Below are positions 15,259-38,418 of a stretch of DNA of 64,000 nucleotides, one piece after another (the first letter of the stretch is position 1; the number at the start of each line of letters is the position of its first letter). Position numbers and translations under genes: made by a program. The DNA lies in contig JBHLMQ010000003.1 in assembly GCA_048938005.1 (NCBI GenBank), forward strand, positions 109,014-173,013. Direction: 5' to 3'. The notes beneath the pieces are model-generated. The model was not told the DNA's origin. It did no database searches and worked only from the letters and a program-made list of their open reading frames with translations. The DNA is from Promethearchaeota archaeon. GTDB taxonomy: Archaea; Asgardarchaeota; Lokiarchaeia; Sigyniarchaeales; SOKP01.

Positions 15259-15951
15259 TTAAATAGGTAATATCGAAGTGTCTGAAATTTCTTTATCAAC
15301 TGGAGCTTCTCCATCTCCATATATATGATACAACACAGTTCTTCTAGCAATCTCATAAAAACTACGATATATATCTTTTTCTTGATCGTATAATGCACAA
15401 GTTTTGTAAATTAATGGATTCCAAATAAATAAATTATGTTTAGGCTCATACCAAAGTTTTTCCTTTTTCAATATTTGAATAAAATTGTCATCATTAATTA
15501 CATTTTTGAGATCTTGCTTATTCAACATAATAATAAATGGAATCTCTTTAATGAGTCTATTATTTGTTATGTTTTTTAATTCTAATAGAAATTCAATATT
15601 ATCTTCAAAAAATTTTGTTTGAGAATCTACTACAAAAATTACGGCATCAGTTTGGGCATCAAGACTATTGAAGACTTTAATTCTTAATGGAGTGAATGTT
15701 TTTTGACCTGCAACTGTATATACTCTATAATATATTTTTTTCTTCTTTGTCGATTGGAAAATACCTCTATCAAAATAAAGTGTAGCACCACTTGCTCTAT
15801 CTATTTTTTGTAACTCCCCAACAGGAACAATTTCTCTTTTACTGTCTTTTGTTAGTTTATAAAGAGTTTCCAATATGGTAGTCTTTCCGGATCCTGCCAT
15901 GCCATAGTACACAATCTTCAGGTAGATATTACCGTTTTTGTATTGAACCAT
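15259..15951 (-). CDS. MglA-like small GTPase
   Basis: KIVYYGMAGSGKTT, ATLYFD, YTVAGQ in place of DxxG, VIFVVDS, NKQD. Confidence 0.85.
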   Translation of the reverse strand: MVQYKNGNIYLKIVYYGMAGSGKTTILETLYKLTKDSKREIVPVGELQKIDRASGATLYFDRGIFQSTKKKKIYYRVYTVAGQKTFTPLRIKVFNSLDAQTDAVIFVVDSQTKFFEDNIEFLLELKNITNNRLIKEIPFIIMLNKQDLKNVINDDNFIQILKKEKLWYEPKHNLFIWNPLIYKTCALYDQEKDIYRSFYEIARRTVLYHIYGDGEAPVDKEISDTSILPI

Positions 15952-35228: not shown

Positions 35229-35327
35229 AAAAATCTTGTTTTTCCATTTATTTATAATATTCATCTAAAATCAGATTACTAAATATTAAAACAGGGCTAA
35301 AAAAATCATAATTTTATAAATAAGATT

Positions 35328-36470
35328 TTAATAGTTCTTACTTGGAATTTTTGGTAATTGTCTTCGATTACTTGGATTTTTCTCTTTGGATTTCTCTAAT
35401 ATTCCTATTATTTCAGCTTTTCTTGCATTAGTAGGCAAATCTATTTTTTTTTCTTTAGCGTAAGTTTTAAGATCTTTTACAGTCATAGATTTAAAATCTG
35501 TTATTTCTTTAGCAGTAGCCACTTGTCTTGTAGGAGTAATACTCTTTGAGGCTTTTTTCATTGAAGCTGGCTTGGTTGGCATTGAAGTTAATGAATATTT
35601 TTGTTTTTTAGTTGAATCTATTTCTGATTCTATAACGATCTTCTTTTCTGAGGAACTTTTTGGTTTTTTTTCTTTTTCTAATACTTCTATAGCCTCTACA
35701 ATTCCTTTTTTTTCGTCAAAATAGACTCGTAACACATTATTGTCCAATTCCAGCATATCTTTTGGAACTTTTTTAACAGGTTCCCAATAAGTCTCTTCAA
35801 CTTCTTTTCCAAAAACTTCAGCAGTTTTTGAAACTGCTCCATAAAGCGTATGACCTAGAATGAGATTTAATCTTTTATAATCTTTAGGGACATCTCTTTT
35901 TAATATTTTCTCCTTAATTTTTTGTTTTTGTTCCTCTGTTAATCCTATTGCTTTAAGTTCGCTTGGAGCATAAGATGAAATTACTACTTCATTACTCGTG
36001 TCTTGTAATGCCGGTGAAAAATATCCTTCTTCTGCTTGCACTTTCATTGTTTTTGGAGTAATATCTGTTATAGTTGCCTGTTCCATTTTTACTCTTTCAA
36101 TATTTCGAATATATCGCATATCTGCTAATCTTTCAGTAACTTCCATTGATTCCAATTTAAAAGCATTTAAAAATTCTGTGGGTTCATCTCCTGCATCTAC
36201 AGAAACAATCTTACAACGATGGTATCTCGCATCTCTCATTAACTCATCTTGCAAAGATTGAGCTACTCTTGAACTAATGAATCGTTTTCGAACAGGTGAT
36301 TTTGGACCTTTCCAAATAAAAATTCTCCGTAAGTCTTCTCTTACAATTACTAACACTTGTTCTGGATGCAAATTGGTTTTAAGTTCTTCTTCATTTATGT
36401 CTAATTTCTTACGTTCTCCCGATTCCTCCAATTCATAAACCATAAACGTTTCAATTTCTGTCATTTTCAT
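35328..36470 (-). CDS. Gelsolin-domain protein with central domain and C-terminal HeH/Rho-N-like motif
   Basis: LHPEQVLVIV...IFIWKGPKS....RF...VDAGDEPTEFLNAF; C-terminal MTVKDLKTYAKEKKIDLPTNARKAEII. Confidence 0.78.
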   Translation of the reverse strand: MKMTEIETFMVYELEESGERKKLDINEEELKTNLHPEQVLVIVREDLRRIFIWKGPKSPVRKRFISSRVAQSLQDELMRDARYHRCKIVSVDAGDEPTEFLNAFKLESMEVTERLADMRYIRNIERVKMEQATITDITPKTMKVQAEEGYFSPALQDTSNEVVISSYAPSELKAIGLTEEQKQKIKEKILKRDVPKDYKRLNLILGHTLYGAVSKTAEVFGKEVEETYWEPVKKVPKDMLELDNNVLRVYFDEKKGIVEAIEVLEKEKKPKSSSEKKIVIESEIDSTKKQKYSLTSMPTKPASMKKASKSITPTRQVATAKEITDFKSMTVKDLKTYAKEKKIDLPTNARKAEIIGILEKSKEKNPSNRRQLPKIPSKNY

Positions 36471-36679
36471 TCGTTAGTGTATTTAATCGTAGATATTTCA
36501 ATATCTAAGAAAATTATTAATTAATGTGTTATAAAAATTTGATTTTTCTTTTCAAATTTAATTATTTTAAAGAAAATATAAATTACATTTATAAAAATTT
36601 TATTTTTTAAAAAAAATAGGAAGAAATTTTTTAGTATAATAATTTTTAAAGTTGTTAAAAAAACATTAGTTTCATTACA

Positions 36680-37426
36680 TCACGTACGAGCGAAAGCACC
36701 GACAGAATCATGTAAGACATTGTCGATTGAAAGGACAAATCCTACTAAAATTCGGCGATCAGTTTCATTATCAAGGATTTTAAGAGCATAAGTGTCTTTA
36801 AAGTCAAACACCCCTCCAAGGAAGAAATCTCTCCACCTATCAGCTTTTTCGATTTCTGCGACAATTTTTCCGGTTGCTACTTCATACACTTTAAAGCTAA
36901 AACCAAAAAAATTACCAATGGCTTCATACCATCGTGTTCCATCAGGCGCTTCTAAGAAAAATTTATTCTTGAAAAATGTAAGTATCTTTTTCTTAATTCT
37001 TGCTATTAAATTCCCTTGTGGATCCTTTAAATCTTGAGCCCCTCGAGCAGATACGATTTTAGCGTGAATAGTAGCAGCTACGGTACCATCAATTTCTTGT
37101 AATTCAACCCTACGTCTAATACTTAAGATTATTCGTTTCATCTTTCCAATAACTTGACCATTCTCATCTAAGATATCACCACTACCCCATTTGGGTTTAG
37201 AAGGGAACCCCTCCTAAACATCCCAGTATTTTTCTTTAAGGATGTAATAATTGCGGTTAATATCAAACAATCCTCCTCCAGGAGTAGGAGTCTTTTTTGA
37301 TGGAATTATTGGAGGTGATACTTCTTCTTGTGTTTTTGCACTCTCAGGTATTGGTGAACCACACTTCTCACAAAAATTCTGGGATGGATCGGTTATCTCA
37401 TCCCCACAATTCGGACAATATGGCAT
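36680..37426 (-). CDS. Zinc-ribbon + LURP-one/scramblase-like protein, split by a 30-nt intron (exons 37426-37220 and 37189-36680; 238 aa spliced)
   Basis: GAGGT SD upstream of ATG 37426; CPNC/CEKC. The spliced junction reads YYILKEKYWD-WGSGDILDENGQVIGKMKR and joins the 70-aa and 153-aa ORF-track pieces. Confidence 0.8.
37190..37219 (-). other. Putative BHB-type mRNA intron (30 nt)
   Basis: TGGG AT^G TTTAGGAGGG-GTT-CCCTTCTAAA CCCA AA^T: 4-bp central helix TGGG/CCCA, 3-nt bulges and a ~10-bp inner stem; contains an in-frame TAG. Confidence 0.82.
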
Positions 37427-37589
37427 ATTTTTACCTCTAATTTTTAATTATTATGTTTTGTTTTGATTAGTGAATGGTGATGTGGTTTTATAAAGTTTCG
37501 GGTAAGTATGCTGATAATTTTATCTTCATGAAAACGTTTTAATTAAATAAGGATTAATTATTATTAATTGAATATTATAGGAAAGCAGT

Positions 37590-38351
37590 ATGTCAACTAT
37601 AATTATACCAAAACTATTGAAATTAAAAGATTACATTACGCTTATAGGGACTACTTTAGGGATTATCGCTCTAGTCTGTGCCTGTTTTGGTACTCGCGAA
37701 TCTATTTCTTTAGGATTTTTTCTGATATCCCTCTCTCTTGGTACTGACATGATTGATGGATATATTGCTCGAAAAACTAAAACTGTGAATGAAATGGGCA
37801 GAGAATTAGATTCATTGAGCGATTCTTTAACATTTGGTATCGCACCAGCAGTACTAACATACCAATCTTTTAAAACTGGGGATTTTTTTGATATTATTAT
37901 TATAATAGGAGCAATTTGTTTTGCTATTGGTGCAATGCTTAGATTAGCGCGATTTAATATTTCAGAAAGTCCAGGATATACAGGTTTACCAACACCATTA
38001 AGTGCCTTATTGTTAATTAACTTTTTCTATGCTAATTATTTTTATGCGTTCGCCATGGGCGGCAATACATATCCTTTTCTGGAGATATCTTCCTATATAA
38101 TACCTATTTTTATGGTTCTTATCGGCTGGTTTAATATCACAACTTACATTCGATTTGGTGAGAAAGGTAAGACAATTTATATTATTTTTTCAGCTTTAGC
38201 CCCATTATGCCCTATACTGGGTATTATTGGAATATTGAATCCAAATTTTCTAATTTCAATTATCGTAGCTATTTTCTTTTTAGGAGCTTTTATATTTATG
38301 TTAATATTAATTGTTAGGGGATTTATTGTTTATCTTATTACCAAGGCATAA
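37590..38351 (+). CDS. pssA: CDP-alcohol phosphatidyltransferase (archaetidylserine synthase-like)
   Basis: DMIDGYIAR...GRELDSLSDSLTFGIAPA, LRLARFN, YTGLPTP. Confidence 0.82.
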   Translation: MSTIIIPKLLKLKDYITLIGTTLGIIALVCACFGTRESISLGFFLISLSLGTDMIDGYIARKTKTVNEMGRELDSLSDSLTFGIAPAVLTYQSFKTGDFFDIIIIIGAICFAIGAMLRLARFNISESPGYTGLPTPLSALLLINFFYANYFYAFAMGGNTYPFLEISSYIIPIFMVLIGWFNITTYIRFGEKGKTIYIIFSALAPLCPILGIIGILNPNFLISIIVAIFFLGAFIFMLILIVRGFIVYLITKA

Positions 38352-38418
38352 ATAATAAATATTTGTCAACAAATAATTTCAGCATCAAATTAACAAAAAA
38401 AAGTTATCCCTACTAAAT

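Follow-up and report, generated by a model that had tools for sequence, protein, structure and literature searches.

The window analysed here, a stretch of 64,000 nucleotides from a Promethearchaeota archaeon (contig JBHLMQ010000003.1, positions 109,014–173,013), carries on its minus strand a gene that is broken by a stop codon lying within a short hairpin. The arrangement raises the question of whether the hairpin is an intron removed from the mRNA, a segment that ribosomes translate or hop over, or a lesion in a gene that no longer encodes one protein. Comparison with related genes indicates that it is very probably a relaxed BHB (HBh') endonuclease-type intron, located at 37190–37219 in the mRNA of this one gene.

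The interrupted gene and its homologues

Translation of positions 36680–37426 of the minus strand gives a single frame comprising a 70-aa ORF (37214–37426) and a 153-aa ORF (36680–37141), with TAG at 37216–37214 as the sole internal stop. This bears out the initial annotation, in which the two ORFs were described as in-frame and split by one TAG. The gene is organized as follows:

37220–37426, minus strand: exon 1, from the ATG at 37426–37424 through a Zn-ribbon, a variable linker and the conserved LFDINRNYYILKEKYWD up to the Asp codon at 37222–37220
37190–37219, minus strand: predicted 30-nt BHB-type (HBh') intron with the in-frame TAG at 37216–37214, coinciding with a 10-column gap in the homologues and showing covariation
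36680–37189, minus strand: exon 2, opening with WGSGDILDENG..., containing the LURP-one/tubby-like barrel and closed by the stop TGA at 36682–36680

With the stop read as X, Pfam assigns the Zn-ribbon of exon 1 to PF13240 (29.1 bits, cut-off 25, residues 3–25) and the LURP-one-related domain to PF04525 (38–40 bits, 38.2 in the window gene, cut-off 24.5). An intron-less orthologue modelled with AlphaFold (pLDDT 70.4) has a confident strand at residues 66–70, followed by a turn, the junction at 75/76 and a strand at 78–82. This model matches the LURP-one-related structure 1zxu (E 1.6e-4, TM 0.72 by target), as well as the C-domains of Tubby/TULP1. The Zn-ribbon and LURP-one/tubby identity, first proposed from the letters of the sequence, is thus upheld both by Pfam and by the fold match of the orthologue model. 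The LFDINRNYYILKEKYWD segment of exon 1 is nearly invariant among homologues and corresponds to the first strand (residues 66–70) of the predicted barrel domain. The PF04525 (LOR) match begins at profile position 32, past the junction, even in the intron-less P0002, and Pfam therefore does not establish a single domain across the break.

No further copy of the interrupted gene is present in this 95%-complete genome, the second match being 25 residues of another Zn-ribbon. The G+C content is 29.8% in the host genome and 26–33% along the window. The neighbouring ORF (380 aa, window positions 35328–36470, minus strand) has a Lys-rich tail that ends in a SAP/HeH-like stretch.

Searching the protein collection returned 454 relatives, which, where named, are LURP-one-related or zinc-ribbon proteins from MAGs of Promethearchaeota, Lokiarchaeota, Hodarchaeota, and Hermodarchaeota. 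The junction was examined in the 120 that were listed. A segment of 10 codons is missing in 115 of these 120, with ...KEKYWD/WGSGD... continuous, and the missing codons are exactly 37190–37219; the uninterrupted YWDWGSG expected of homologues is therefore what the alignment contains. The remainder are two homologues with a stop-less insert, two that were not placed, and the fragment of the window gene itself. The stop-less insert, found in P0021 and P0042, reads NWETLPLEPE and lies at the same site as in the window; it has Trp at the position of the window's TAG, and gene callers read through it.

The hairpin, its orthologues and the alternatives to splicing

On the minus strand, positions 37225–37189 read UGGG / AUG / UUUAGGAGGG / GUU / CCCUUCUAAA / CCCA / AAU, and comprise the following elements:

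37222–37225, minus strand: exon strand UGGG of the central 4-bp helix (MFE fold)
37219–37221, minus strand: 5' bulge AUG, three unpaired nucleotides, with a predicted cut between 37220 and 37219
37196–37218, minus strand: inner hairpin h', with a 10-bp stem (37218–37209 / 37205–37196) and the loop GUU (37208–37206)
37192–37195, minus strand: intron strand CCCA of the central helix (MFE fold and covariation)
37189–37191, minus strand: proposed 3' bulge AAU, with a predicted cut between 37190 and 37189

The MFE fold contains the 4-bp helix UGGG/CCCA, the 3-nt 5' bulge and the 10-bp inner stem, including one G-U pair. On the 3' side of AAU, both the fold and the alignment allow at most one C-G or U-G pair. 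The perfect TGGG/CCCA helix, the ATG and AAT bulges and the weak outer stem with one C-G pair, all listed in the initial annotation, agree with the sequence and the fold. AAU is counted as a 3-nt bulge by analogy with the 5' bulge, there being no outer helix that closes it; in the absence of that helix the motif is a relaxed HBh' (bulge-helix-loop) rather than a strict hBHBh'. One study of Asgard tRNA introns uses as its criterion one or more flanking helices (h or h') of at least two pairs (bioRxiv 10.64898/2026.10.13.758758); here h' has 9–10 bp and is 96.8% paired. Computationally, cutting each bulge behind its second residue excises exactly 30 nt and restores YWD/WGSG. The rule stated for cbf5 introns likewise places the cuts between the second and third bulge residues (PMC2738675).

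Taken alone, the hairpin is unremarkable. The energy of a 71-nt fold around it is unexceptional (z = -0.76, with 41 of 200 shuffles folding equally well), and the same geometry with a stem of at least 7 bp occurs at 15,416 places in the genome. Since neither energy nor geometry stands out, the case rests on comparison with relatives. The genome was also scanned for places where the BHB geometry is present and its removal joins two long open frames. There were 646 matches versus 538 at random positions, and 78 of the 15,416 places with a stem of at least 7 bp satisfied the criterion. Fifteen candidates inspected by eye were mostly ordinary gene-gene junctions, with a start codon within or adjoining the supposed "intron", or had junk upstream frames. 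No clear second mRNA intron of the BHB kind was found in the genome by this geometry scan with 15 candidates viewed.

Among 154 genomes of the order, six-frame searching detected the gene in 141. The window's genus is represented by 54 genomes; the DNA of the best match was read in 50, the other four having weak matches or none. Inserts are present in 18 of these 50 orthologues and absent from 32, and they occupy two sites that are never filled together. Site A, that of the window, is occupied in 10 of the 50 genomes, including the window's own, and each insert is exactly 30 nt long; its second codon is TAG, TAA or TGA, and one insert carries two stops. Site B lies 12 nt upstream, between LKE and KYWD, and is occupied in 8 of the 50 genomes by inserts of 30, 27, 30, 30, 30, 28, 29, and 29 nt. 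Three of these (28, 29, and 29 nt) throw the second half of the gene out of frame with the first. The same cut rule, applied computationally at site B, restores LKE/KYWD. Inserts at either site are absent from ten loci of six other genera of the order; other genomes outside the genus were judged solely from stops within the six-frame match. Among 80 metagenome loci, four have an insert at site A, one at site B, and 75 have none, in a sample biased to intron-less genes, since one of the peptide patterns employed in the scan runs across the junction. One of the metagenome loci (L131) has an in-frame stop in the SIRRRVEL motif (SIR-stop-RVEL) and an insert at neither site; this stop resembles a plain nonsense mutation or a sequencing artefact.

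Covariation at site A was evaluated in 14 sequences (10 genomes and four metagenome contigs) over the 4-bp central helix and 9 bp of the inner stem. Pairing is retained in 97.8% of 182 cells, and in slid controls, with partners shifted by 1–3 columns, 8–64% of cells pair. Six of the 13 pairs change on both sides, all six being among the nine tested pairs of the inner hairpin. Cells with a two-sided change number 17 versus 5.5 in shuffles, a value reached in none of 500 shuffles. All 56 cells of the central helix pair; the exon strand UGGG of this helix is set by the Trp and Asp codons, and its intron strand varies (CCCA, CUCG, CUCA or CCUG) yet always pairs. The peptide encoded by the insert is not conserved among orthologues.

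At site B, single-sequence folds give each of the eight introns its own inner hairpin, with differing stem sequences. RNAalifold, run on the MAFFT alignment of the site-B introns, did not recover these inner stems because their loop lengths differ. The third base of the Lys codon covaries with the central-helix strand of the intron, forming G-C in three cases, A-U in three and G-U in two, with no broken pair. The codon string ATC CTT AAR GAA occurs in all eight site-B hosts versus 4 of 32 intron-less genes and 3 of 10 site-A loci; for 8/8 versus 4/32 the hypergeometric probability is about 6e-6, computed over relatives that are not independent.

Two further features of these loci were observed. 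In site-B hosts the exon bases AUCCU (Ile-Leu) can pair with the downstream GGGAU (Trp-Asp), which would make an outer helix across a gap of 8–9 nt; the Ile codon is ATC in all eight of these hosts and variable among intron-less genes. At site A, introns resemble each other more closely than do the third codon positions of exon 2 in 41 of 45 species pairs, for instance 90% versus 54% in G080/G071, in a comparison that is ungapped, has saturated dS and includes pairs with G058, G065 and G100 that look misregistered. Such similarity may reflect either a constraint beyond pairing or a recent spread of intron-bearing alleles.

These data bear on several ways in which the gene could do without splicing. 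Readthrough or recoding, with TAG decoded as pyrrolysine or some other amino acid, would yield a protein with 10 extra residues. As all site-A inserts are 30 nt long, the frame is kept and cannot by itself exclude translation at this site, and the two homologues whose 10-aa insert at this position lacks a stop would suit such a reading. However, the pyrrolysine alternative, which the initial annotation had proposed to check through the pyl genes, is not upheld: PylS (PylS_Cterm) reaches 27.2 bits where the cut-off is 178.15, and PylD 24.1 where it is 150.05, and ARAGORN finds no CUA tRNA in the 95%-complete genome. TAG terminates 174 of 1396 long ORFs, similar to TGA (177). Orthologous inserts with TAA, TGA or two stops, together with the frame-shifting lengths of three site-B inserts, mean that readthrough is not a general answer, and the stem covaries as RNA with no conservation of the inserted peptide. 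The probability of readthrough is negligible.

A small palindromic insertion might instead have destroyed the function of the gene, or divided it into two parts that are expressed separately, one a Zn-ribbon peptide and the other a barrel truncated at its N terminus. Gene callers do split the window gene (P0079, 164 aa), the LOR match starts past the junction even in intron-less orthologues, and the insert is patchily present among close relatives. Against this, both halves are open, with no further defect at the sites read, in 18 species and five metagenome contigs, and the genome has no other copy. Every insert-bearing host retains LFDINRNYYILKEKYWD, the first strand of the predicted barrel, and there is no in-frame start near the break. 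The median dN/dS of exon 2 is 0.065 for intron-bearing genes (92 pairs) versus 0.070 for intron-less genes (402 pairs), rough values from ungapped comparisons with saturated dS, of which the medians alone were used, as pairs with G058, G065, G076, G084, G098, and G100 look misregistered. They lend rough support to similar purifying selection on exon 2 in both groups. Compensatory changes that preserve the BHB geometry, moreover, would not be expected of an inert insertion. Inactivation or splitting of the gene is accordingly regarded as improbable.

Ribosomes could also hop over the hairpin or shift frame, as in the bypass models of phage T4 gene 60 and the "byp" elements of yeast mitochondria. 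The insert resembles a bypass element in being a short hairpin, GC-richer than its AT-rich host, with a stop near the 5' end. Bypass of the gene-60 type requires matching take-off and landing codons around the gap. The AAA codons flanking the site-B insert could serve in this way, but at site A only 1 of 10 genomes has the take-off codon (GAU/GAC) repeated just ahead of the landing point. One 28-nt insert (G049) lacks an in-frame stop and would suit a frameshift; the other seven of the eight site-B inserts have in-frame stops ahead of any slippery run, which leaves a +1 shift able to rescue just one gene of the eight. Bypass also gives no reason for the 4-bp helix and 3-nt bulge to be kept in 56 of 56 cells. 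We know of no translational bypassing in archaea, whereas machinery for BHB processing (two EndA genes and RtcB) is encoded in the genome. Bypass or frameshift is thus considered highly improbable. Excision of the insert as an intron, the reading of the initial annotation, is supported by the gap in the homologues, by the orthologous inserts and by covariation.

Turnover of the probable intron and the splicing machinery

When exon 2 is placed on a tree (60 rows), genes with a site-A insert, a site-B insert or none lie intermixed, and the starred branches force at least three changes per label. Closely related genes can differ in intron state, as in the following pairs:

G070 (none) and G055 (site B): exon-2 identity 96.3%
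G094 (none) and G063 (site B): exon-2 identity 93.0%
G064 (none) and G084 (site B): exon-2 identity 91.0%
G092 (none) and G060 (site A): exon-2 identity 91.2%
G061 (none) and G058 (site A): exon-2 identity 90.1%

With a gene tree of 456 nt, such changes may be loss, gain or allele exchange. Frequent change of intron state is in line with the frequent gain and loss of tRNA introns between close relatives among Asgard archaea, as reported in bioRxiv 10.64898/2026.10.13.758758.

The first 12–14 nt of four site-B introns (L045, L047, L012, and L046, belonging to G049, G055, G099, and G057, respectively) resemble the following 12 exon bases, which encode Lys-Tyr-Trp-Asp. By eye, such a duplicate-like start is clear in about 3–4 of the eight site-B introns. 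This resemblance hints that site-B introns may arise by local duplication into a BHB-competent fold.

The genome contains two EndA-domain genes, detected by profile search at 104.7 and 73.8 bits and encoding proteins of 198 and 205 aa, whose best solved relatives are 3p1z_B and 1a79_A; RtcB is also encoded (568 bits). Asgard EndA is described by Kaneta (2018; PMC5829648) as an (alpha-beta)2 enzyme with an L1 loop and broad specificity. The presence of two EndA genes suggests that the enzyme of the host is heteromeric and of the broad-specificity form found in Asgard archaea. ARAGORN found just 16 tRNA genes in the 95%-complete genome, 12 of them intron-bearing; the low count fits heavily interrupted and partly undetectable Asgard tRNA genes.

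A look-up of sequencing runs for window positions 35300–38400 returned none from RNA. From the anatomy of the insert, its conservation and the enzymes encoded, we infer the following course of cleavage and ligation. In the transcript, exon UGGG would pair with intron CCCA, leaving a 3-nt bulge on each strand, and the 10-bp intron hairpin would stack on this helix. The splicing endonuclease would cleave between residues two and three of each proposed 3-nt bulge, at sites predicted from the fold and the homologues, and RtcB would join the exons to give ...KEKYWD/WGSGD... in a protein of about 238 aa. Without splicing, the product would be 70 residues long, containing the Zn-ribbon and linker alone. 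A broader proposal is speculative and, on present evidence, rather unlikely. In it, Asgard protein genes contain not relics but mini-introns in active turnover, which entered or re-entered the same gene at two sites 12 nt apart and which differ in presence between sister species with only 4–10% divergence in exon 2. As the unspliced message would code for no more than the Zn-ribbon part, splicing by the tRNA enzymes could then switch between the 70-aa peptide and the full protein, as an archaeal counterpart of HAC1/XBP1 splicing in the closest relatives of eukaryotes.

Comparison with known introns

A search of the literature outside subscription journals and supplements retrieved no account of a comparable intron in mRNAs of Asgard archaea or in LURP-one genes. 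The intron suggests that, in the closest relatives of eukaryotes, the machinery of tRNA splicing probably processes mRNAs too. Sister species with and without it offer a natural system for the gain and loss of such introns. For annotation, the case is a warning that separate "zinc-ribbon" and "LURP-one" calls in these genomes belong to one gene.

Among archaeal mRNAs, a BHB intron was reportedly found by Watanabe in 2002 and by Yoshinari in 2006 in the cbf5 pre-mRNA of Crenarchaeota. The cbf5 intron hosts belong to the Desulfurococcales and Sulfolobales, and cbf5 is given as the only confirmed case of archaeal pre-mRNA splicing as of 2009, others being predicted (Yokobori, 2009; PMC2738675). 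The cbf5 introns and the intron described here have in common that a short intron with a relaxed BHB lies in an archaeal protein gene, that the cuts are predicted between the second and third bulge residues, and that the intron is tied to an EndA that is hetero-oligomeric, in our case probably, and patchily distributed through gain and loss (PMC2738675). They differ in host, which here is a Zn-ribbon and LURP-one-related gene of an Asgard archaeon and in cbf5 a pseudouridine synthase gene, and in the two alternative insertion sites, 12 nt apart, found here within one genus. Splicing of cbf5 was shown experimentally, whereas that of the LURP-one gene is predicted from sequence comparison.

The BHB introns of archaeal and Asgard tRNAs resemble it in the enzymes involved and in repeated gains and losses among close relatives, according to PMC5829648 and bioRxiv 10.64898/2026.10.13.758758; the latter does not treat mRNAs. 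The tRNA genes of the host genome are themselves intron-rich (12 of 16 by ARAGORN). The difference lies in the host RNA, which here is an mRNA, so that excision must also restore the reading frame.

In eukaryotes, HAC1/XBP1 mRNAs are cut by IRE1 and ligated by RtcB or Trl1. That system shares with the proposed mechanism a non-spliceosomal enzyme that cuts at two stem-loops of an mRNA, joining by a tRNA ligase and an altered protein product. Its endonuclease is, however, IRE1, which recognizes another motif, and its splicing is stress-regulated; the intron of the LURP-one gene is not a member of this system.
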